In this document: positions 404 to 53,533 of the stretch, piece after piece
Layout of the letters: each line of letters opens with the position of its first letter
How positions within the stretch are numbered: the first letter of the stretch is position 1
DNA from: a virus
Taxonomy: Duplodnaviria; Caudoviricetes
DNA length: 53,546 nucleotides
IMG/VR virus record: IMGVR_UViG_3300045999_001420
Location: 1 to 53,546 of that record
Direction: 5' to 3' (one strand)
Notes under the pieces: generated by a model
The model's input: only the letters and a program-made list of their open reading frames with translations
Told to the model about the DNA's origin: nothing
Database searches by the model: none
Position numbers and translations under genes: made by a program

Positions 404-418
404 AACTTATCCTTTCTT

Positions 419-470
419 AGCCTCATCAGTGCCAGCGTCACTGGCAGACCGCCGTGAGGCGGTTTCGGCT
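419..470 (-). ncRNA. type II hammerhead ribozyme
   Basis: Minus strand reads AGCC-GAAA-CCGCC-UCAC-GGCGG-UC-UGCCAG-UGACG-CUGGCA-CUGAUGA-GGCU: full core (GAAA, GUC, CUGAUGA) and all three stems. Confidence 0.92.
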
Positions 471-667
471 TAGGTGTGAACGTAACCATCCTTCTCGATA
501 GCCAACCACATGCCGCACCACTGGACGACGATTGCGTTATCCATCCCAAAGGTGGGCTGTACGGAGGCACGGAAGTTTCGATAGCTGATACCCTTCGCCT
601 TGAGGTCACCTTGGATATGCTTGCGCTTAAGGGAAACGGCTTGGGCTTTGGTGATGCGAAGCATCAT
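470..667 (-). CDS. small early hypothetical protein
   Basis: ORF overlapping the stop of 664-864 in an operon-like arrangement. Confidence 0.75.
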   Translation of the reverse strand: MMLRITKAQAVSLKRKHIQGDLKAKGISYRNFRASVQPTFGMDNAIVVQWCGMWLAIEKDGYVHT

Positions 668-4780: not shown

Positions 4781-4826
4781 TAGGCTCTGCCCCGGTTTCC
4801 TCCCATGGAACCAACCCCTGTGACTT

Positions 4827-4861
4827 GGCCCTCTGCACCCAGCAGGGGGCCTTTTTCTTTT
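4827..4861 (+). terminator. intrinsic terminator after terL
   Basis: GGCCCUCUGC-ACCCA-GCAGGGGGCC followed by UUUUUCUUUU. Confidence 0.8.
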
Positions 4862-4903
4862 GGGTATTGCAACCACAGTAGCTTTGCTTTACAACTACGA
4901 AGC

Positions 4904-7208: not shown

Positions 7209-8246
7209 ATGGCAATGCCTGAACAAATTCGTAAGCAGATTGAAGCCGCAGATGAGCAGTTGAAGAAGCTGTCTGGTGAGACGGGGGCTGATGAGGCCAA
7301 TCCGCCTGCCGATGAGACCGTTTCCGACGCTTCCACGTCTCAGGCTGACGATGCTGGGAAGACAGTTCAACCTTCTGGAGCCTCTGAGCAAGGCACCAAG
7401 GAAGACCCGAACTCTGACACGTATGCCCAGCGTTGGCGTACGCTTCAGGGGCAGTTTAACGCAGAAGTACCGCGACTGCGGGGCGCAAACAAGGATTTGC
7501 AGGCCCGTGTCGCCCAGTTGGAGAACCTTCTTTCGACACTCAACAGTGCTCCACCCGTCGCTGCGCAGGCAGCACCGCAGTCCGCACAGAAGTTCGTGAC
7601 TGACGCTGACGTGGCCGAGTACGGCGAGTCGATTGATATGATGCGCAAGGTCACCCGTGAGGAGGTTGGCTCTATGCTGGGTAAGATTGCCCAGTTGGAG
7701 AGCACCATCCAGCACCTTACGAATAACGTGGCAGGTACAGTAATTCCGCAGGTTCAGCGTGTTGCACAGCAGCAGGCTGCGTCTACGGAAGAGCGGTTCT
7801 GGACTAACCTCGCGCAGCGTGTACCCAATTGGCAGCAGATCAACAACGATCAGGACTTCCAGTCTTGGCTGTTGGAGGTTGATCCGCTGACGAATACTTC
7901 GCGTCAGACCCATCTGGAGATCGCCCAGCGCGATCTGGATGCGAACCGTGTCGTTGCGTTCTTCAACGCCTTCACGTCGGCGTCTGGCAAGTTTGCGCCA
8001 CAAGCGAATGCTCAACCTAATCGGTCTGCTTCAGAGTTGGAGCGGCAGATTGCCCCCGGTCGCGCACGCGGCTCTTCTGGTGCCTCTGCTGGTCAGACCG
8101 CGAAAACCTATACCCCGGAAGACATCAAGAAGTTCTTCAACGATGTCCGTTCTGGCAAGTACAGGGGCCGCGAAACTGAGCGTGACCGTGTTGAACGCGA
8201 CATCTTCGCAGCACAGCGGGATGGACGCATCATGCAAGCAAGCTAA
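7209..8246 (+). CDS. scaffolding protein
   Basis: Acidic N-terminus and coiled coil; lies between portal and capsid genes; RBS AGGAG. Confidence 0.8.
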   Translation: MAMPEQIRKQIEAADEQLKKLSGETGADEANPPADETVSDASTSQADDAGKTVQPSGASEQGTKEDPNSDTYAQRWRTLQGQFNAEVPRLRGANKDLQARVAQLENLLSTLNSAPPVAAQAAPQSAQKFVTDADVAEYGESIDMMRKVTREEVGSMLGKIAQLESTIQHLTNNVAGTVIPQVQRVAQQQAASTEERFWTNLAQRVPNWQQINNDQDFQSWLLEVDPLTNTSRQTHLEIAQRDLDANRVVAFFNAFTSASGKFAPQANAQPNRSASELERQIAPGRARGSSGASAGQTAKTYTPEDIKKFFNDVRSGKYRGRETERDRVERDIFAAQRDGRIMQAS

Positions 8247-12912: not shown

Positions 12913-13320
12913 GTGGCACTTAAGTATTCAGTTACGGTGAGGAACGCGCAGCTTGATGCGTTCGAGACCGCTTGCGGTGTGTCCGCTATACTCAAGATCA
13001 GGACTGGTTCTGCTCCCGCCAACTGCGCTGCGGCAGACACTGGCACGGTTCTGGCAACCTTGAACTTGCCGTCCGATTGGATGGCTGCGGCTGCATCAGG
13101 TATTAAATCCAAGAGCGGTACGTGGGAAGACGTGTCTGCTGACGCGACCGGCACTGCCGGTCATTTCCGCCTCTACGCTTCGGACGGTACTACAGTACAT
13201 GCGCAGGGCGAGATTACAGCAACCGGCCTCGGTGGTGATCTTACGCTCATCAACACGAGCATCGCTGTAGGTCAGACCGTGACGATCACCGGCTTCACGT
13301 TGACCGCCGGTAACGCATAA
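12913..13320 (+). CDS. virion structural protein
   Basis: RBS AGGAG, GTG start; Thr/Ala/Gly-rich beta protein. Confidence 0.7.
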   Translation: MALKYSVTVRNAQLDAFETACGVSAILKIRTGSAPANCAAADTGTVLATLNLPSDWMAAAASGIKSKSGTWEDVSADATGTAGHFRLYASDGTTVHAQGEITATGLGGDLTLINTSIAVGQTVTITGFTLTAGNA

Positions 13321-25548: not shown

Positions 25549-27804
25549 ATGGCATACGTAGCAGGGCTTTACACCAAGGCCAGTCAGGCTTCCGCCGACG
25601 AGGCAAGGCGGTTCCGCGACTTCCAGACCCAGATCGATGAGATGGGTGCGCGTGAACGCGCAGGTCTGATGCGTCAGCAGCAGGCCGCTATGGATCGCCA
25701 GATGGCTGGTCTTGTTCAGCCGGGTCAGCTTTATACGCCCGAAACGCTGCCGCGTGTTTCTCCCGCCGGGACTTCAGTTGCGACCTCGCCGCTTCCGGCG
25801 ATGATGCCAGAGCAGCAAATCCAGCCTGAACTCACCGCACCTGCCGGTGCTGCTCCCGCACCTGCTGCCGGACTTACACCGTTCCGCATGTCTCCGGGTC
25901 CGATTGAGGCTGGCGGTACGCAGCCGCCCAGTGTCGCCCCTACCGGAGATCAGACAAAGACCGGTTTCGAGCAGGTTTTGCAAGGTGCAAAGCCAGTACT
26001 TCAGCGCAGGTACAATACGGATATACTTGAGAAGCTGCGCGTCTCTCCGCTACAGGGTGCGTATGACTTCTTCTTTACGCCTACCGGAGAAGTCGCGTCT
26101 AAAGAACAGACCGCAAAGCTAAATACTGAGGCAAGCACTTGGTACGCAAGCGAAGCTGTGCGCAATTTTATTACTTCGGATCAGACTGCATACACAGAAG
26201 CAGCACGCGATCCAGTCGGGTATTACCAGAAGAACAAGGACAAGATTGGCAAGAAAGCCGCCGCACCCGCAGCGGCTGCACCTGCTGAACAGCCCGCACC
26301 CGGTGGTACGCAGCCTATTCCTGCTCCGACTTCTACTGGCATTGCTCCGCTCGAAGTGCCCGCTGCCGTCCCTGTGAAGGACGAAGCGTTTGCAACGCAG
26401 TCGGCTGTGAAGCTTGAGAATGAGTTCCTGCCGCGCGTTGCTGAAGTCCCGCAGATGATGACTTCGGATACCGTCCAGCGCCTTGTGCGCCGCGCAACGG
26501 AACTTGGTGTGGACCCTGCTGCCGCCGTCGCCATCTACGGTGTCGAGACAAACTTCGGTCGTCGCGTAGGCGTCAGCGAGAAGGGCGCTCGTGGTCTGAT
26601 GCAGGTTATTCCTGCTACGTTCAACGGGATGAAGACGTTCTTCACGGACCCGGCTGAGATCAAGCGGTACAACATCCCGCAGCCCCTCGTGGATGCTGCG
26701 AAGAATATGTCTGCCGACGACGAAAACAGCTTCGATGCTGGTCTCCTGCGTATGAAATATGCAGAGTATAAGGGCGTAGCCAACAACCTCCTCGGCGCTG
26801 GATATAACGCATCTGCTGAAACGATTGCCAAGCTTGGTCGTCCACTGGCAACCGGCTCTGGCATCACGAACGAAGACTACAACAAGGCGTATATCGCACT
26901 CTACAACGAGGCGCGTAACTACGTTGGTCTTGAGCCGAACGCCCAGATGGCAAACTACGAAGCCACGGCACCACTCAGGCTTCAGGAGATCGACACCAAC
27001 GAGCAGCTTGAACTTACGAACTACAACAACGAGATCGGTCTGCTCCAGACGCAGAACGAACGTATCCTCGCCCAGCGCAATGTCATCGCGCAGCAGATCG
27101 CGTTCGCTCAGCAGAGCGGTTTTGCCAACCGTATTCCGGCATTGCAGCAGCAGCTTCTCCAGATCGATGACCTCCTTATGCAGGTGACGCAGCAGGCCAA
27201 CCAGTTGAACGCCGGGTATCAGACCAAGTTCAACGAGTTCAACATGCAGCGCACGACGGAGTTCAGTAACGTTGCTATCGGCAGGATGCTCCGTGGTGAT
27301 CCACGGTCGCTGTCGGAGCAGTGGTCCCGTGCCTATGGAGAACCTGTCACCATCCAGCGCCGGTCTGACGGCAAGTACAATATCTTCATGGGTGCGGACG
27401 GTCGCCGCATGAGTCCCGCAGCGGGCATGACCCCGGATGAGGTGGCTACCCAGTTCAAGATGGAGTTCGACTCTGCCTTCCGTGCGCAGGAAGCCGAGCG
27501 CCGTCAGGCCGAGCGTGATGCCGCAGTGCAGCATGACCGGGAGTTGGAGAAGATTTACGTCGAGAACGTCGGAAAGATCGAGGTCGCCAAGATCAGCAAG
27601 TCGCCTGTGCCCGGTTTCAGCAAGCCAGAACCCGTAAGGTACAACGAAGCGGGAGTTGCCATCGAGTTCATCTCCTTCGGTGAGGGTGCTTACGACAACC
27701 AACTTATCCGTATCAAATCCCCGCCGCAGCAGGAACTTAAGGATGGTATTCTCACCATCGATCAGGCTATAATCACCCGCGAACCAAGACCGGGACTTCA
27801 GTGA
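25549..27804 (+). CDS. ejection protein with lytic transglycosylase domain
   Basis: AIYGVETNF...KGARGLMQVIPATF...GYNA SLT motifs. Confidence 0.8.
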   Translation: MAYVAGLYTKASQASADEARRFRDFQTQIDEMGARERAGLMRQQQAAMDRQMAGLVQPGQLYTPETLPRVSPAGTSVATSPLPAMMPEQQIQPELTAPAGAAPAPAAGLTPFRMSPGPIEAGGTQPPSVAPTGDQTKTGFEQVLQGAKPVLQRRYNTDILEKLRVSPLQGAYDFFFTPTGEVASKEQTAKLNTEASTWYASEAVRNFITSDQTAYTEAARDPVGYYQKNKDKIGKKAAAPAAAAPAEQPAPGGTQPIPAPTSTGIAPLEVPAAVPVKDEAFATQSAVKLENEFLPRVAEVPQMMTSDTVQRLVRRATELGVDPAAAVAIYGVETNFGRRVGVSEKGARGLMQVIPATFNGMKTFFTDPAEIKRYNIPQPLVDAAKNMSADDENSFDAGLLRMKYAEYKGVANNLLGAGYNASAETIAKLGRPLATGSGITNEDYNKAYIALYNEARNYVGLEPNAQMANYEATAPLRLQEIDTNEQLELTNYNNEIGLLQTQNERILAQRNVIAQQIAFAQQSGFANRIPALQQQLLQIDDLLMQVTQQANQLNAGYQTKFNEFNMQRTTEFSNVAIGRMLRGDPRSLSEQWSRAYGEPVTIQRRSDGKYNIFMGADGRRMSPAAGMTPDEVATQFKMEFDSAFRAQEAERRQAERDAAVQHDRELEKIYVENVGKIEVAKISKSPVPGFSKPEPVRYNEAGVAIEFISFGEGAYDNQLIRIKSPPQQELKDGILTIDQAIITREPRPGLQ

Positions 27805-30800
27805 TGGCTAATCCGCTCGATCCGACCTTCTCCCCGCTCACCTCTGGTCTTGCAGCCCCGCCGCCTTCGATGGCGGAAGATTACGCCACACGACTTAGAC
27901 AGGCGGGTCTGGCACAGCGGCAGGGGTTTGTTCAGGAACCGGAGCTTCCTACCGGCAGGACGGCACGCCTCGCTTACAGCCCTTCGACCAAGCAGTTCTT
28001 CGTCGGCGGTTACACCTTTGACGATGACAACGACACTGCTGCCGTGGCGCTGTCGAAGTATGCCAACCAAGAAGCTCCGCTCCCTGAAGGTGACTGGCAG
28101 GAAATCGATCCGGCCAGCTACGCACAATATGTTGAGGGTATCCGCAGCCCCGGCTTCTTCCAGCAGATTGCCAACAACTTTGACATCGGTCTTGATGAGG
28201 CCCAGCAGACGCTGGGCTATGGTCTTATGTTTGCTGGTGCGACCGAAACGGGCGCACGCTTGGCAGACCAGAGTGCCGACCTTGCCAAGACCCAGATTTA
28301 CCAGCGCAACATCGAGAACATCGGTGAGAACGGCGTCCTTGACTGGGTTGCTGCAACCATTGGTCGTCTGGGCCCCAACATTATTGAGTCGGTGATCACT
28401 GCCGGTATCGGTGCCGGTATCGGCTCTGCGGCCACTCCCGCTGGTACAGCGGGCGGTGCGGTTCTGGGCTTCTTCGGCAAGTCTGCCGTTAAGAAGGCGC
28501 TCTACGAAGCTGCCAAGAAGCACTACACCGGACAGGCATTGGATGCCGCAGAAAAGAAGCTTCTTCTGTCCAGCGCGGGTATGCTGAACGCTGCGTCCAA
28601 CGCAGCCAAGACCAAGCTGGCCCCCGGTGCGTTCAACCAGTTCATGGAGGAAGGTCTTCAGGCTGGTGCCGAAAACGTAGCCCGTAGGGTTGCCGCCCGT
28701 GCTCCCACGGAGATCGGCGCAGCCGGTCTGTCTCTGGCATCCAACGTCTTCCAGCAGACCGGACAGGCTTATGGCGAGACCATGGCTGACGGTGGCGAAG
28801 GTAATCGCGCTGTCGCTCTCGGTGTTGGTGCGCTTGGCGGTATCGCGGATACGGCTGGTGAGTTCCTGCTGGCTGGCCGTGTGTTCAGCGAAGCGATGGG
28901 TGACGTTGCCGGGTCCATTACCAAGCGCAAGAAGGCCCTCAACATCCTCAAGGGCGTAGGCGCTGGCGCTGGCGTAGGTGCGGGTATGGAAGGTGGAACG
29001 GAAGCGTTCCAAGAAGTCCTCCAGCTTGCTGCTAACCCGGTGGTCGATGTCAATACGGCAGAGGGCCAGAGCCGTCTGCTCAACGCCTTTGCTGGTGGTG
29101 CGCTCCTCGGTGGTGGTTTCGGTGGTGCCGGTGGTATCTTTGCTGGTAGCCTCACTGACAATAAGCAGGAAGCCAACCTTCTGCTTCCAGTGGCGAAGAC
29201 CGACCCCGGCTACGCCCAGTACCTCCTCGATGTGAAGAAGCAGCTTGGCGAGGCTGAGTACAATAAGGTCTTCGGCCCGCCCCAGCCGTACACGAACATT
29301 ATGGAACAGGAAGCGATCAAGGCATCGCAGGTCCCGCTGACTGGGGCCGCGCCTACGACCTTCCAAGTTCAGCCTACCCCGCCGATCAATCTCGGTAGCC
29401 CAAACGTCGCCACTGAAGAATTTGGTATGTCGGGCACTGCGACGGGTGAGCTTCCGCAGGGGGTTATGGCACCCACTGTTTCGGACATGGCTCCTGCGCC
29501 CCCTGCACCGCCCGCACCTATCTCCATGGGTGCCACCATGGCCCCCGGCCAGATGGGCGGGGCAACGACTTTCGAGCAGTTCCAAGCTGCTGCGATGCAG
29601 CAGGCGCAGCAGGCTGCGGCAGCACCCGTGGCTCCTACCCCGCCGCCCGTACAAGACCTTCGTAGTGTTGGTATCCCACAGCCTGCGGCTGCTGGCGCAG
29701 CGCCGCTTCCCGGTGGCGAAAGCATCAACGCTCGTCTCCTTCGTAGGGGTGCTACCGCACAGGCCACACCGCCCGCTCAGCAGCAGGGTACGATCCAGCA
29801 GGTTGTTGAGCAGGGTCCTCTTCGTATGGCAGGGCAAGTTCCTGCTCGTATGGGTGCATTACTTCGCCCCACTGCGGTGATGGATCGGGTCCCTTCAACT
29901 GCTGGTCAGGCTACCGGCACCGTGGTGCAGCCGCTCACTGCTGCCATTAACCTCAAGCGTCCCGCCTCCCCGGCGGGTGGGCGTACAAACGCGCTTGCCT
30001 TTCTGTCTAATGTCATCAATGCAGGACAGAATACGTTTAATACAAGCGAACTTGGGTCGTATCTTTTCCCTAAGAAGACAAAGCTCAACGCCGTTGATCG
30101 CAACCGTGTGAACACAATTATTGATCGCCTGATCACGGACAAGTTAATCGCTGAAGGACCCATTGGTACATACACTATAGATACGGAGAAGGTTCGTGCC
30201 ACTCAGCCCGGAGCAGGAACAGAAGGTGCAAAGCCTGCTGGAGAAGGGGCAGGCAAAGACAGAGGCGCAGGCAAGGGCAATCGTCTACGCGCAGAGCAAC
30301 CGCCCACCGCCAAAGAACCCGCATCCGAAGCACAAGGGCCTGCCGCCCGGAGTAAAGAAGTACGGGAAGAAGTTGGTGGAGCCGCTCTTCTAGCGGCTAA
30401 GAAGCCCGTCGTGGAGAAGAAGCCGCCGCGTAAGACGCTCAAGAAACCTGCGGAGCCGGAACCCCCAAAAGCGGAAGGGGCAGCGGTCGCCCCCTCGCAA
30501 GAGGCCGCAAAGACTAAGGGTAAGAAGCCTGCTGCCGAAAAGGTGAAGCCCTACAAGGACCTCACTGAAGACGAGCAGCTTGCGCTTGCCAAGGAAGCCG
30601 AGAAGCAGGGGGCAATAGTCGCTACGCTGATGGAGCGTGAGCAGGATGTCCCTGACCTTCCCATGAATGCGACCAAAGTGGAAGCCGACCTCTATGAGGT
30701 GTACGGCACCATTGGCAATATCATCCTTGCTCAGCGCGACAACAAAAAGAAGGGCACGTCCGTAAAGAACGCTGCCAAGCAGTCGTTCATCGATAGCGTT

Positions 30801-33800
30801 GGTACGCTCTACAACTGGGCAACCAAGCCGGGTATGGCGCAGGAAGCCAAGAACACTGCTGCCGCCTTCTTGGATGCGCAGATTTCCGCCAGCGAGACCG
30901 TGCCGCTGAAGGAAGGCGTGAAGCAGGCAATCAAAGACGCTGAGCAGGGTATGTTCAGCCTCTCCCAGTTCGACGCTGTAACTAATCCAGTGGATGAGAA
31001 CGGTCGCCCTGCCAAGGGTGTGAACCCGATCCGGGCCAAGGCTATCGTGGACAGGTTCCGCAGCGGCCTTGCCAAGGCTCCGAAGTTCTTCGTCTACAAG
31101 AACCAAGCTGATCTCCAGAGCCGTAACCCTGACCTCTACCAACGCGCAGTGGCAGCGCGTCCGCAGGGAGATTTCGATACTGCCATGGCTTCCGGCTACG
31201 CCTTCGATGGCACGGTGCTGGTCTTCACCGACCGCATCCCGACCGAAAAGTACATGCGGTTCCTGCTGGCTCACGAGGCCATTGGTCACTTTGGTATGCG
31301 CTCCCTGCTGCCCGCGAAGCAGTTCGATGCGCTCATGGACTACGTCTATGATAATAACCCCAGTGTGCGTCAGTCGGTCGATGGTGCCCTGAAGGGTAGC
31401 AAGGACCTTGGTGCCCGCCGCGAGGCGGTCGAAGAGCACATGGCGAAGTTCGCTGAGACGCTGGACAGCAGCATTCTCAGGCGCGTGTGGTCTGCCATCA
31501 AGGACGTGCTGAACAAGCTCGGCGTTAAGTTCGAGGACGACATCGTCCGCTATCTCGTGTCTCAGGCCCGCAGCACCGTGCGCAATGGTTCGTCCATGTT
31601 CACGCCCAGCACCTTCGCGCTCAACCTCCAAACCGTGATGACCAACAACGGCACTGGGCGGTTCAGCGTCGATCCGGTCTACTCTGCACAACATACGTTG
31701 CGCAACCAACTGGACCTCATGGCTACGCCACTCGCCAGCATCGAGGAGACGGGCAATACTCTCAGGGACCTCAAGATCGATGGTCTCGACAAGTTCGAGA
31801 ACTTCATGCGCAACGTCTTCCGTCTGCGCAACTTCAATGCTTTGCGTAACCATGGGGCACAGATCGCTGAACGCCTCAAGGACGCCATGCGCACGGGTGC
31901 GCAGTCCCTGTACAACACCTACAACGAGCGTCTTGCGAAGCTACTGGCACTGACGGGCAACTCCCGCCAGACCGTTTCCTATGCCATGGTGATCAGCCGC
32001 CGTATCGCCAGCAGCCGCTTCAAACTCGATGAGAACCTGCGCAACAAGGCGCTACTGGTTCTCGGTGACGAACGTCTGGATGGTTCCGGGCGCGACACAA
32101 CGGTTGACGAGGATACGCTCAAGCAGCTTCTCGCTCTCGGTACGCTGTCCAAGAAGGAACTCGAAGACGGCGCGACCATCACCTACGAAGAGGCCATCGA
32201 AGGCGGCAAGACCAAGACGGTCACCGCCAAGGTCAAGGGTCTACAGGAAGAACTCGGTCGTGGTCTGACGGACGAAGAGTACGACATCTATGTTCAGACC
32301 CGCAAAGACCTTGCTGATCTCGACATCGAACGCCTGAAGGCGCAGTTCGACAACTTCTTCCTTGCCGAGAAGGTATCCACCAAGGGCATCAACAAGGTCC
32401 TTGCCGATAAGGAGATGACAGCCGACGACGGCAAGTTCGTCAGGGACATCGTGAACCACGCCAAGAAGCTCTTCGTGGATGACATGGAGTACGACGAGCG
32501 CGGTATGCCGGATGTCACGACCAAGACGGCTATGCGCATGGAGCAGTTCTTCAAGGCGGTCAACACGGCCATCGTGAAGAAGGAATTCACCGACGACCTC
32601 AAGAAGGACGTGCGGGAGTTCTACGCCAACGAGAAGCAGGCCGAAGCTGCCATCAAGAAGATCGAGGACTTCCGCAGCCGCCGCACAGAGTTCAGCGGCC
32701 TTGAAGAGCAGAGTGTAATTTATACCGTGCAGGACAGGGTCAAGGAGATCGTCCTTGCCGACGCCGCTTTCGAGCGGGCGCAGATGTTTGTGCGCAGGTC
32801 CATCGCTTCGTCGCACGTTCCACTGTGGCGCGAGGGCAAGTTCCAAGTCCGTGTTGAAGCGCAGATCAACGGCAGGACGGTCCAGCTTCACCCCGACGTG
32901 CAGAACAAGATGATCTACAGCTTGGCCCCGAATTTGTCGGAGGCTGAAAACGCAGCAGCGTTCTACAATGACAACATGAAAGATGTTGAGTACAGCGGTC
33001 TCGTCAGGGACGACGCAACCGGCGAGTACAAGACGCAGACTTTCAAGGTGTTTGCCCGCGCATCCAAGACCGTGGATACCGTGTCGTCCGATCCGTCCAT
33101 CGACATCGACAACTTCCTCTACACGATGCGTGTTCTTGGCATTCCTCTGGCCCCGGACAAGCACGCCAAGGCGATCACCATGTTGACGGCTCCGGGCAGT
33201 GCGCTTCGTAAGTCGTTGAAGTTCGATGACACCCCCGGCTACGATGCCAGCAGGACGGTCGAGGCTGTTGCACGCCACGTCACCACACGCTCTTCGCTCA
33301 TCGTGAAGACGCGCTTCCAGCCGCTGCTCCGTGATCTCATGGATCAGTCCTCCGAGACGGGCCAGAAGTGGTTCGGTGACAAGGAAGCTGTCATCACCGC
33401 CAAGGAGCGCCTCGACGCCGCGACTGACCAGAAGCAGAAGGACTACTGGCAGGACAGGCTCAACAAAGAACTCTATATGTACGTCACCACTAACCCCGGA
33501 GCCAAGGGGTGGGATGGTAGCCGCTCGACGTTCAACAACCAGCCGACCAAGGCCAGCCTTGGTATGCGTTACTACAGCGACACCAGCGCAGAGTTCGACG
33601 CCGTCAACGACGCGCCCAATATCAACGAGTCCACGTTCGAGGGTAAGCGGTACGCTGCGCTGGCAAAGATGGTCACCAGCATCGGCTTCCTCGGCGGTAT
33701 GATGACGCAGTTCGCGCAGAACCTGATGTCGCCCGCTACGAACGTGCTGCCGTATCTCGCATCCAAGGACAGCCAGACTGGCTTCGGTGGTGGCTTCGGC

Positions 33801-35297
33801 ATGGCGGTCATGCCCACCTACCTCAAGGCGTTCAAGGACGTTGTCGGGGTGCGCGGGATGAACCCGTTCACTGATCCCATCGAAGACGCCAAGGCGTTCG
33901 AGAAAGCCGCTGCCGAGATCAAGGCCGCGCGTGATGCTGGTGACACTGCCAAGGAAGCTCAGCTTGTCCAGCAGTATAACCTTAGCTACTACGAAGCTCT
34001 GAACATCGCCCGCGAAATCCGCGAAGGCAAACTCATCCCGGCACAGGCAAACGCCCTGCTGGAGACTGCTCGTGGTATGTTCACTGGTAAGATTGCCAAG
34101 GGCTTCCTCAAATTCTCCGACGTGTACATGGCTCCGTTCAACGTATCGGAACAGGCCACTCGCCGCGCCACCTTCCTCACTGCGTTCCGGTTGGAGTTCA
34201 ACCGCCTGAAGGAAGCCGGGTTCAACGAGGACAAGGCCAGCGAGATGGCCCGCCTCTTCGCCATCGATACGGTGGATAAGACGCTGGGTGAATACTCCAA
34301 CACCAATCGCCCGCCTGTGTGGCGCGATGGCGTCATGTCGCTGCTGTTCGTCTACAAGACCTACCCTCTGACATCTCTGCTGCTGTTCAAGAACCTGTCT
34401 CGCGCAGGTAAGATCGGCATGTTGACTTCGCTCTACGTGCTGGCTGGTGCTGCTGGCTTCCCGCTGGTGGACGACATTGAAGACCTCATCGATACGCTCT
34501 CGCAGCGGTTCGGCCTCGACCTCGGTCAGGGTCCTGCCGTGCGCATGGCGATTGTCCGTCAGCTTGAAGAGTTCTTCCCCGGTTGGTCTGACCTGATCCT
34601 GCGTGGCCCGATGAACCACTACACGGGTGCGGACGTTGGTGCGAAGTTCGGTCTGGAGGACTTCCTCCCCGGCACGGGCATCTTCCTCAAGGGTGCCAAC
34701 ACCACGGAAGAACTCAAGAGCATCGCTGGACCCGTGGTAGGTATGGGTCTGAGCATGGGCAACTTCCTGTACGACCTCGGTCGCGCTCCGCTTTCGGCCA
34801 CTGTCAGTGCGGTAGACGTAGCCCGTGAAGCTCCGATCTCTCTGGTCCGCGCCATCGGTGACAGCGTAGCCTACATGCAGAATGGTGCCATCGTGGATCG
34901 CCGTGGCTACATCGTATCGCCAGAAGTCAGTGCTGCGACCGTGCTCTCCCGCATCATTGGTTTCTACCCGGCTGACGCAGCGCGGCAGTACGACTTCATC
35001 AAGTATGCTAACCGCATGAACTACGACTACAAGGAAGTCGGGATCGCCTACCGCATGGCTTGGGTCAAGGCTATGATGACAGGCGACAGGTCACAGGCCG
35101 CACGCATCGTGCGCGAGGTCAACGACTGGAACGAGGCCAACCAAGGTGGGCCGGGGGTTATCCGTAACTTCCTGCGCAACGCCCAGAAGGCGCTCAAGGA
35201 AGCCCGCCGCCCTGCTGGTGAAAGGTTCCTCAAGTCTGCGCCAGTCGCGTCTCGCGCCAGCTACGACCGCTTCATGGGGTACATCGCACCAGAGTGA
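27804..35297 (+). CDS. giant ejection/polyvalent-type protein (2497 aa)
   Basis: TM-like Gly/Ala segments, zincin-like HEAIGH (31272-31289) and PLxRFG-like PLWREG (32820-32837). Confidence 0.8.
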   Translation: MANPLDPTFSPLTSGLAAPPPSMAEDYATRLRQAGLAQRQGFVQEPELPTGRTARLAYSPSTKQFFVGGYTFDDDNDTAAVALSKYANQEAPLPEGDWQEIDPASYAQYVEGIRSPGFFQQIANNFDIGLDEAQQTLGYGLMFAGATETGARLADQSADLAKTQIYQRNIENIGENGVLDWVAATIGRLGPNIIESVITAGIGAGIGSAATPAGTAGGAVLGFFGKSAVKKALYEAAKKHYTGQALDAAEKKLLLSSAGMLNAASNAAKTKLAPGAFNQFMEEGLQAGAENVARRVAARAPTEIGAAGLSLASNVFQQTGQAYGETMADGGEGNRAVALGVGALGGIADTAGEFLLAGRVFSEAMGDVAGSITKRKKALNILKGVGAGAGVGAGMEGGTEAFQEVLQLAANPVVDVNTAEGQSRLLNAFAGGALLGGGFGGAGGIFAGSLTDNKQEANLLLPVAKTDPGYAQYLLDVKKQLGEAEYNKVFGPPQPYTNIMEQEAIKASQVPLTGAAPTTFQVQPTPPINLGSPNVATEEFGMSGTATGELPQGVMAPTVSDMAPAPPAPPAPISMGATMAPGQMGGATTFEQFQAAAMQQAQQAAAAPVAPTPPPVQDLRSVGIPQPAAAGAAPLPGGESINARLLRRGATAQATPPAQQQGTIQQVVEQGPLRMAGQVPARMGALLRPTAVMDRVPSTAGQATGTVVQPLTAAINLKRPASPAGGRTNALAFLSNVINAGQNTFNTSELGSYLFPKKTKLNAVDRNRVNTIIDRLITDKLIAEGPIGTYTIDTEKVRATQPGAGTEGAKPAGEGAGKDRGAGKGNRLRAEQPPTAKEPASEAQGPAARSKEVREEVGGAALLAAKKPVVEKKPPRKTLKKPAEPEPPKAEGAAVAPSQEAAKTKGKKPAAEKVKPYKDLTEDEQLALAKEAEKQGAIVATLMEREQDVPDLPMNATKVEADLYEVYGTIGNIILAQRDNKKKGTSVKNAAKQSFIDSVGTLYNWATKPGMAQEAKNTAAAFLDAQISASETVPLKEGVKQAIKDAEQGMFSLSQFDAVTNPVDENGRPAKGVNPIRAKAIVDRFRSGLAKAPKFFVYKNQADLQSRNPDLYQRAVAARPQGDFDTAMASGYAFDGTVLVFTDRIPTEKYMRFLLAHEAIGHFGMRSLLPAKQFDALMDYVYDNNPSVRQSVDGALKGSKDLGARREAVEEHMAKFAETLDSSILRRVWSAIKDVLNKLGVKFEDDIVRYLVSQARSTVRNGSSMFTPSTFALNLQTVMTNNGTGRFSVDPVYSAQHTLRNQLDLMATPLASIEETGNTLRDLKIDGLDKFENFMRNVFRLRNFNALRNHGAQIAERLKDAMRTGAQSLYNTYNERLAKLLALTGNSRQTVSYAMVISRRIASSRFKLDENLRNKALLVLGDERLDGSGRDTTVDEDTLKQLLALGTLSKKELEDGATITYEEAIEGGKTKTVTAKVKGLQEELGRGLTDEEYDIYVQTRKDLADLDIERLKAQFDNFFLAEKVSTKGINKVLADKEMTADDGKFVRDIVNHAKKLFVDDMEYDERGMPDVTTKTAMRMEQFFKAVNTAIVKKEFTDDLKKDVREFYANEKQAEAAIKKIEDFRSRRTEFSGLEEQSVIYTVQDRVKEIVLADAAFERAQMFVRRSIASSHVPLWREGKFQVRVEAQINGRTVQLHPDVQNKMIYSLAPNLSEAENAAAFYNDNMKDVEYSGLVRDDATGEYKTQTFKVFARASKTVDTVSSDPSIDIDNFLYTMRVLGIPLAPDKHAKAITMLTAPGSALRKSLKFDDTPGYDASRTVEAVARHVTTRSSLIVKTRFQPLLRDLMDQSSETGQKWFGDKEAVITAKERLDAATDQKQKDYWQDRLNKELYMYVTTNPGAKGWDGSRSTFNNQPTKASLGMRYYSDTSAEFDAVNDAPNINESTFEGKRYAALAKMVTSIGFLGGMMTQFAQNLMSPATNVLPYLASKDSQTGFGGGFGMAVMPTYLKAFKDVVGVRGMNPFTDPIEDAKAFEKAAAEIKAARDAGDTAKEAQLVQQYNLSYYEALNIAREIREGKLIPAQANALLETARGMFTGKIAKGFLKFSDVYMAPFNVSEQATRRATFLTAFRLEFNRLKEAGFNEDKASEMARLFAIDTVDKTLGEYSNTNRPPVWRDGVMSLLFVYKTYPLTSLLLFKNLSRAGKIGMLTSLYVLAGAAGFPLVDDIEDLIDTLSQRFGLDLGQGPAVRMAIVRQLEEFFPGWSDLILRGPMNHYTGADVGAKFGLEDFLPGTGIFLKGANTTEELKSIAGPVVGMGLSMGNFLYDLGRAPLSATVSAVDVAREAPISLVRAIGDSVAYMQNGAIVDRRGYIVSPEVSAATVLSRIIGFYPADAARQYDFIKYANRMNYDYKEVGIAYRMAWVKAMMTGDRSQAARIVREVNDWNEANQGGPGVIRNFLRNAQKALKEARRPAGERFLKSAPVASRASYDRFMGYIAPE

Positions 35298-52901: not shown

Positions 52902-52951
52902 GGTAACATATCCTTTGTAGTTGATTGGTTGGTTGGGTAGTACGCTGGGGC

Positions 52952-53533
52952 TTATGCCCCAGCGTTGTCTGCCTTGATGCGGGCGATAGCCTCTTCGCTG
53001 AGCACAGCCAGCGCACGCTGCTCGACCGTTGCAGGGATGATATTAGAACGAAGCTGTTCAGCAGCAGGCCACACTGCCACGACATCGTTAAAGGTACGGG
53101 ACCCATCGATGAGGCGGATATAGTCCTCCTGCTTGGTACGGACAGCCTTAGCATGGGCCTGACGGGCCAGAACATAGGCGTTGAGGGCGTCCCTAGCTTC
53201 CTTTGACCAGACATATCCACGGTCGCCGCACCCTGTATGGCGAGGGACAAGCGGCGCTTCCGCCGCTTCGTTGAACATGAACGAACTCTCGTGGTCGTAG
53301 CGACCACCGTATTGGATGCAGGTGTCACGCTTGGCGGCACCGTACTTCTCCAGCACCTTCATATCCTTGGGTGGATAGACGGCAACCACAGCGGCGGTCA
53401 CGAAGGGCTTGGCGACAGCGTATGCAGCATCGAGCGTAGCCTTTTCCTTGGGGCATTTGACGTTCGCTGATGCGAAAATCTTGAGCCTCTTGCGGAGTTC
53501 GGCGTTGAGAGCCTTATCTTTGAGCTTAGCCAT
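52952..53533 (-). CDS. hypothetical protein, Nmad5-like
   Basis: RBS GAGGA; LN.ELR N-terminus and SRTFNDVVAVWPAAEQL. Confidence 0.6.
   Translation of the reverse strand: MAKLKDKALNAELRKRLKIFASANVKCPKEKATLDAAYAVAKPFVTAAVVAVYPPKDMKVLEKYGAAKRDTCIQYGGRYDHESSFMFNEAAEAPLVPRHTGCGDRGYVWSKEARDALNAYVLARQAHAKAVRTKQEDYIRLIDGSRTFNDVVAVWPAAEQLRSNIIPATVEQRALAVLSEEAIARIKADNAGA

Follow-up and report, generated by a model that had tools for sequence, protein, structure and literature searches.

The DNA analyzed here, a window of 53,546 nucleotides that spans an IMG/VR virus record in full (linear, estimated to be 97% complete), carries a complete type II hammerhead ribozyme on its minus strand at positions 419–470, with every nucleotide of the core present. 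The element is most probably a genuine type II hammerhead within a polycistronic phage transcript, where it would cut one operon into two separately capped mRNAs. The motif, its placement between two genes, the covariation of its stems and the conservation of its slot in related contigs are observed directly.

The 66-nt gap between an upstream ORF (470–667) and a downstream ORF (56–403), both on the minus strand, houses all the elements of the hammerhead. Read from 5' to 3', these follow the order stem II strand, GAAA, closed stem III, cleavage site, closed stem I, CUGAUGA and second stem II strand, which is the type II permutation. The 5' strand of stem II (AGCC, 470–467) pairs with GGCU at 422–419, the C467–G422 pair being the conserved 11.1–10.1 pair; the 3' strand was assigned from the sequence, the Rfam alignment and covariation. 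The core GAAA (G12, A13, A14 and A15.1; 466–463) is invariant in all eight family copies compared, and its last residue, A463, pairs with U448. This pair closes the stem III hairpin (462–449), which consists of CCGCC (462–458), the loop UCAC and GGCGG (453–449). U16.1 and C17 occupy positions 448–447, and the cut is predicted, from the Rfam alignment and standard numbering, to fall 3' of C447, between 447 and 446; by that hammerhead numbering we take C447 to be the cleavage-site nucleotide C17. The stem I hairpin (446–430) is formed by UGCCAG (446–441) and CUGGCA (435–430), and is capped either by a possible seventh pair, U440–G436, or by a UGACG pentaloop. The second core segment, CUGAUGA (C3–A9; 429–423), is likewise invariant in 8/8 family copies. 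An A-rich tail with the Shine-Dalgarno-like AAGAAAGGA (418–410) lies directly 3' of stem II, with its GGA ending 6 nt before the ATG, and AAAGGA-like tails are present in the alignment in all nine family copies.

The defining sequence features of a hammerhead are found at this place. The core comprises C3-U4-G5-A6-U7-G8-A9 at 429–423 and G12-A13-A14 (the GAA at 466–464); the A15.1–U16.1 pair (A463–U448), which is A-U in 8/8 copies, is followed by an H17 residue that is not G (C447); and three helices backed by covariation surround the core, loops closing stems I and III but not stem II, as in type II. The original prediction had placed a complete type II hammerhead here, starting at the UAA of the upstream ORF and cleaving between 447 and 446, and it holds on each of these points: all parts were found, the last A (A470) of the stop codon (472–470) is the first base of stem II, and C17 corresponds to position 447 in the Rfam alignment. 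The interval of 1–2 nt that it had left between the ribozyme and AAGAAAGGA does not exist, as stem II abuts the tail directly.

A search with the Rfam hammerhead models, which had been named as a check of the prediction, returned a full-length match to Hammerhead_II (RF02276) at 412–470. The score of 37.4 bits reaches the gathering score of 37 and is marginal; its E-value, computed for the whole window and all 4227 families, is 4.6e-4, and RF02276 is the sole family that reaches its cut-off. No match to RF02276 was found in any of 14 control genomes, and Rfam detected no second hammerhead in the window at E up to 10. A family-specific covariance model (R1), run over the window with the filters off, recovered 417–472 alone. 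Its runners-up, at 13241–13302 and 7242–7300 (16.5 and 14.8 bits, respectively), are devoid of the core and lie inside coding sequence. A weak Rfam match to suhB/mmgR on the plus strand at the junction between the terminase and portal genes (4791–4865; 27.1 bits, gathering score 41, E = 0.15) is probably due to chance.

Structure prediction with RNAfold yields the hammerhead as the minimum-free-energy (MFE) fold of the 56-nt core, at −24.5 kcal/mol, and also of a 96-nt stretch. The program picks a 2-bp extension of stem II consisting of C473–G416 and U472–A417. When 40 nt are added upstream, the predicted MFE fold of the window copy is an alternative structure that pairs GCCUCA with the core UGAGGC, which is possible because the stem III loop is inverted in this copy (see below). 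This inactive fold was considered as a switch and rejected; it appears in the 140-nt context only and is absent within 3 kcal/mol of the optimum in the 56-nt core.

Homologues of the 115-amino-acid product of the downstream ORF were collected from nine viral contigs and three metagenome contigs, which together with the window make a set of 13. A hammerhead occupies the same slot in five of the 13, namely the window and contigs L002–L005 (73–97% protein identity), and the gene order of these four contigs is the same as that of the window. The slot contains no hammerhead in the other eight contigs (57–69% identity), and in L006 and L010 a different upstream gene ends 5 nt before the ATG. The search of metagenomes for relatives gave three loci, all without the ribozyme. 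Rfam matched the slot hammerheads of L002, L004 and L005 and overlooked that of L003 at E up to 10. The latter, at 2924–2987 of its contig, was spotted by eye; it has the full core and a 9-bp stem III, and scores 67.5 bits with R1. Long stem III variants of the subclass of hammerheads without a pseudoknot, described below, can thus escape the Rfam filters. Extra copies are found downstream in three of the relatives, which contain in total two (L003), three (L004) and two (L005) hammerheads on one strand within 2.5–3 kb.

Covariation was analyzed over eight of the nine family copies, with the omission of copy b of L004, whose ribozyme is identical to that of copy b of L003. Standard pairs fill all pair cells (120/120), and both sides have changed in 7 of the 15 pairs. 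The covariation score was reached by none of 500 shuffles, and sliding the partners cut pairing to 21–44%. Stem II keeps its four pairs in all eight sequences, with one A-U to G-C change, five of the seven pairs of stem I are changed on both sides, and the sequence of stem III differs among relatives with its pairing kept. The core positions are all invariant across the eight copies while the stems vary. Covariation around an invariant core is, at the level of sequence, the pattern that would be expected from selection for a working ribozyme, unlike that of a mere hairpin.

A comparison of the ribozyme with its flanks reveals that the two have had separate histories in part. Relative to L003, 140/150 nt upstream and 135/150 nt downstream are identical, against 17/40 in the interior of the ribozyme; relative to L005, the interior is identical at 30/32 positions, against 113/150 upstream and 107/150 downstream. 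Because the interior is discordant with the flanks, the stems appear to have been exchanged between copies or lineages, with the borders (core and stem II) unchanged, and the stems of such cassettes appear to be swapped among copies independently of the flanking genes. The copies inside one genome carry different stems, which would presumably limit mispairing and recombination between them. The stem III hairpin of the window is the exact reverse complement of that in L005 and in copy b of L003, an inversion that turns a GNRA loop (GUGA) into UCAC.

A second slot is filled in L004 and L005, and is empty in the window even though the downstream gene is 96% identical. The corresponding junction of the window (52902–52962, minus strand) precedes a gene for a 286-amino-acid protein, and it is the L004 counterpart of this gene that follows a hammerhead. 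Neither a hammerhead core nor a model match was found at 52902–52951. The junction displays a 7-bp hairpin with a UAA stop codon in its loop, together with strings of 8 nt and 10 nt that are common to the slot hammerhead of L003, and possibly represents a relic or an alternative element.

The placement of the ribozyme was compared with that of other phage hammerheads in a survey of viral contigs. A pattern search (core plus a GCC/GGC stem II) returned at least 120 stretches, and a descriptor script applied to the retrieved loci reported, among the matches listed, 145 type II hammerheads in 101 loci, a sample that is ascertained by one stem II sequence and for which ORF calls are mechanical. 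Two or more hammerheads occur in 22 of the 101 loci among the matches listed, with largest counts of 9, 7 and 6. In 104 of the 145 hammerheads among the matches listed, a same-strand ORF (at least 35 codons) has its stop codon at −2 to +4 nt from stem II, as compared with 154 of 2900 positions drawn at random from the same strands. The distance from stem II to the next start has a median of 22.5 nt (n = 136 among the matches listed), and in 97 of these 136 cases, again among the matches listed, an SD-like tetramer is present. The layout of stop codon, ribozyme and SD is the rule for phage type II hammerheads and is highly non-random. The three largest arrays are found in unrelated viral contigs, L033 (2150–5070), L022 (890–4800) and L031 (3844–8600), which hold nine, seven and six type II hammerheads, respectively, or nearly one per intergenic gap.

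The upstream ORF encodes 65 amino acids of no known family, and the downstream ORF (ATG at 403–401) a viral hypothetical protein with no family match. The Atlas places the flanking proteins in clusters of hypothetical proteins, with a weak DUF8033 lead (13%) for the 115-amino-acid product. Among five small ORFs of the operon that were searched, two matched PHROGs, both families of unknown function, and none matched Pfam; none of six was above the NCBIfam cut-off. The genes form a minus-strand run comprising 1103–861, 864–664, 667–470, the hammerhead, 403–56 and an ORF that begins at 63 and is cut off by the end of the contig. The junctions 864/861, 667/664 and 63/56 are overlapping stop and start codons, and the ribozyme junction is the sole exception in the run. 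No promoter-like or terminator-like site was found at 404–469, and the genes on both sides of the ribozyme are presumably co-transcribed. The contig ends (1–63 and 53534–53546) cut the operon, and the ORF from 63 matches the first five residues of the next gene of L002–L005. At the site of the contig ends the relatives hold about 2 kb with an AAA-type ATPase and further hammerheads, a segment that is lacking or replaced in the window. Because the contig ends inside the operon, further copies are possible in the missing part, and the phage genome may hold more hammerheads than the window displays.

On the plus strand, the genes between about 2800 and 35300 comprise that of the large terminase and other long ORFs, among them a single ORF of 2498 amino acids (27801–35297). 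On the minus strand, a DNA polymerase, an SNF2-type helicase and a DUF927 protein are encoded among the genes that run from 53545 to 35400. Were the genome circular or permuted, the small minus-strand genes at 2439–56 would lie upstream of these replication genes. This order of small same-strand genes makes the assignment to an early operon, as originally predicted, plausible, although no minus-strand promoter was identified for the gene run. Blastn of positions 1–1500 of the window gave one match, of 77 nt, to Roseobacter phage CRP-3, tblastn of the 115-amino-acid protein found none in cultured phages, and the identity of the large terminase to any phage record does not exceed 44.5%; by sequence comparison, the phage has no close cultured relative.

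Several structural elements precede the run on the minus strand. A strong terminator-like hairpin at 1801–1774 is followed by about 650 nt of AT-rich non-coding DNA (1105–1770) and then by the ribozyme gene run. The palindrome TTTACWGTAAA, with one mismatch allowed, matches five times in the window, where 0.25 matches are expected. Four of the five are in the AT-rich stretch (1483–1493, 1508–1518, 1610–1620 and 1654–1664), which is likely an operator or iteron region, and the fifth is located within ORF 861–1103, at 1018–1028. GC-rich hairpins at 2103–2132 (13 pairs) and 1914–1934 (8 pairs) are positioned directly 3' of the stop codons of minus-strand genes of 100 and 46 amino acids, respectively. 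Each of them precedes a CAAAGGA-type RBS, an arrangement that corresponds to the stop-structure-SD layout of the hammerhead slot, with a plain hairpin in place of the ribozyme.

In most type II hammerheads, loop I is paired with the tail that follows stem II, and this pseudoknot was needed for fast cleavage at 0.5 mM Mg2+ in a dissected type II ribozyme, as stated in the parts of Perreault et al. (2011; PMC3088659) drawn on here, which also describe many examples that use neither known contact. In the window, no pseudoknot of at least 4 bp between loop I and the 3' tail was found; the best Watson-Crick run is 1 bp, and 1–3 bp over the nine family copies. The survey divides type II hammerheads accordingly, among the matches listed: with a stem II of at least 4 bp, the pseudoknot occurs in 6 of 73 sequences (5 of 73 when the tail is shuffled), and with a stem II of 3 bp, at least four pairs between loop I and the tail occur in 57 of 72 (18 of 72 when shuffled). 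The window ribozyme falls into the class with at least 4 bp, and belongs to a subclass without the usual pseudoknot. In the 67 distinct sequences of this class among the matches listed, an A precedes stem II in 58 and stem I has seven 'pairs' in 46; of the latter, 43 have a 3-nt loop, with U-G as the seventh pair in 39 and U-A in 4, resulting in a U-NNN-G cap. Pairing of loop I with the region around the AUG was looked for by eye and discarded as inconsistent between copies. Four of the nine family copies reach the Rfam cut-off, four lie below it and one is missed, the scored copies ranging from 29.5 to 38.2 bits. Because the scores lie at or below the cut-off, pipelines that rely on it will under-annotate the pseudoknot-free subclass.

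Since the pseudoknot is absent, activity at cellular Mg2+ concentrations would rest on another tertiary contact, for which the uridine of loop I and the adenines on either side of stem II are candidate partners. We tentatively put forward, and regard as rather unlikely, the broader proposal of a distinct pseudoknot-free subclass, defined by a 4-bp stem II after a conserved A and by a 6-bp stem I with a U-NNN-G cap, in which this contact is made and translation gates cleavage. If true, the tertiary contact that the subclass would use, between this uridine and these adenines, is one that has not been described. Furthermore, with stem II resting on the stop codon, the ribozyme would be melted by a ribosome that terminates there, so that translation of the upstream gene would gate its cleavage.

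In the mechanism that we favor, the transcript would fold into a three-way junction and cut itself 3' of C447. The upstream message (genes 1103–470) would end just past its stop codon, in the stem III hairpin and a C17 with a 2',3'-cyclic phosphate. The downstream message (gene 403–56 onward) would have a 5'-OH start flush with the stem I hairpin, and then the remnant of the core, the RBS and the AUG, in agreement with the hairpin-capped 5'-OH end that had been predicted for the downstream cistron. After the cut, the 4-bp stem II alone would join the halves. Both new ends would carry a closed hairpin because of the type II topology, unlike those generated by types I and III. The operon would be split into two mRNAs, with stability and translation uncoupled: one with three genes and one with at least two, each translationally coupled internally. 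Terminal hairpins shield bacterial mRNAs from 3' exonucleases and also from 5'-end-dependent attack by RNase E or RNase J, for which 5'-OH ends are poor substrates. Given this protection by hairpins and 5'-OH ends, the cutting of a polycistronic message is the best reading of the element; cleavage in vivo, and any effect on stability or translation, are what we infer. The slot is empty in most relatives, and the ribozyme is therefore dispensable for expression of the 115-amino-acid gene.

The original prediction went further and described a self-cleaving timer or translational switch, in which an extended stem II masks the RBS of gene 403–56 and cleavage frees it after a delay. This appears improbable from the predicted structures. 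The pairing on which it depends, between CCU (474–472) and AGG (413–411), can be drawn as had been proposed, and the ribozyme ends directly at the SD-like tail; however, the pairing comprises 3 bp across a 1 × 5 internal loop, is absent from the MFE fold and is not conserved, the other eight copies offering 2–4 possible bp at the equivalent place when inspected by eye. Its 5' partner sits, moreover, in the last sense codon and the stop codon of the upstream gene. The thermodynamic prediction gives a mean unpaired probability for the region from SD to AUG of 0.84 in the uncleaved RNA of the window and 0.80 in the 3' product, which argues against the release of a masked site. Accessibility is predicted to rise after cleavage in copy b of L003 (from 0.32 to 0.64) and in copy a of L005 (from 0.61 to 0.77), but over the nine copies it goes up in six and down in three, with no consistent direction. 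A timer would also have little room to operate, as hammerhead cleavage is normally fast and co-transcriptional; the rate given in the part of Perreault et al. used here is above 1 per minute (PMC3088659).

Alternatively, the hammerhead could be a passenger or decaying element that is spread or swapped between slots by recombination and tolerated, without a selected effect on expression of the flanking genes; such an element may cut, or be too slow in doing so without a tertiary contact. The patchy occupancy of the slot (filled in five and empty in eight of the 13 contigs), the second slot that is empty in the window, the discordance between the interior and the flanks, and the missing pseudoknot are all compatible with this explanation. 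It is nonetheless doubtful, because the core is invariant and the stems are perfectly paired in 8/8 copies despite being entirely different in sequence, where a neutral relic would decay, and the stop-ribozyme-SD layout is far from random. A further alternative is that segments bounded by hammerheads, with their 5'-OH and 2',3'-cyclic phosphate ends, are joined by a host RtcB-type ligase into circular or spliced RNA. The relatives with two or three hammerheads on one strand speak for this reading, and the possibility was raised by Perreault et al., but the window contains a single hammerhead, and the part of that paper drawn on here reports that such products were sought and none was detected (PMC3088659). 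Circularization or splicing is thus very improbable for the element described here, and message cutting remains the preferred reading.

The window hammerhead is real and well-supported, but ordinary, since the arrangement has been known since 2011; as one more intergenic phage hammerhead, it matters little alone. Of wider use are the natural controls provided by this phage group, in which the same flanking genes recur both with the ribozyme and without it and some copies have their stems swapped, and such comparisons bear on what bacterial and phage hammerheads do. The role of these ribozymes is still open according to the portion of the review by Weinberg et al. (2019; PMC6765202) consulted here, which also offers the message-cutting reading. 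Cleavage in vivo is described for three type II hammerheads of Desulfovibrio vulgaris in the part of that study available to us (PMC8782182).

A comparison with the type II hammerheads of RF02276 and Perreault et al. (2011) reveals the same full core, GUC triplet and G10.1–C11.1 pair, the same closure of stems I and III with stem II open, and the same intergenic location in sense orientation in a phage. The differences are that the window ribozyme is without the pseudoknot between loop I and the 3' tail which those sections of the paper attribute to most type II examples, and that it belongs to a subclass in which an A precedes a 4-bp stem II and a U-NNN-G cap closes a 6-bp stem I. A further parallel is found in the clustered prophage hammerheads of Clostridium scindens, Azorhizobium caulinodans and Agrobacterium tumefaciens. 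As far as the parts of the paper drawn on here describe them (PMC3088659), they are likewise on the sense strand between small phage genes of unknown function; clustered prophage hammerheads cleave polycistronic transcripts of about 2 kb in vitro, and in one case in E. coli, and the processing of long phage transcripts has been proposed as their role. The proposed polycistronic cutting is common to both systems, and relatives L003–L005 carry two or three copies. By contrast, a single copy is present in the window, so that clustering is seen in the relatives and not in the window itself.

The proposed mode of action has a protein-dependent precedent in the early mRNA of phage T7, of whose RNase III sites the hammerhead would be a protein-free counterpart. 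In T7, intercistronic RNase III hairpins cut a long transcript into gene-sized mRNAs with a stabilizing terminal hairpin, in a reaction that requires the host RNase III and leaves 5'-phosphate and 3'-OH ends. The hammerhead, unlike these sites, would cut unaided, generating 5'-OH and 2',3'-cyclic phosphate termini. The two systems are alike in their mode of working and not in family membership.
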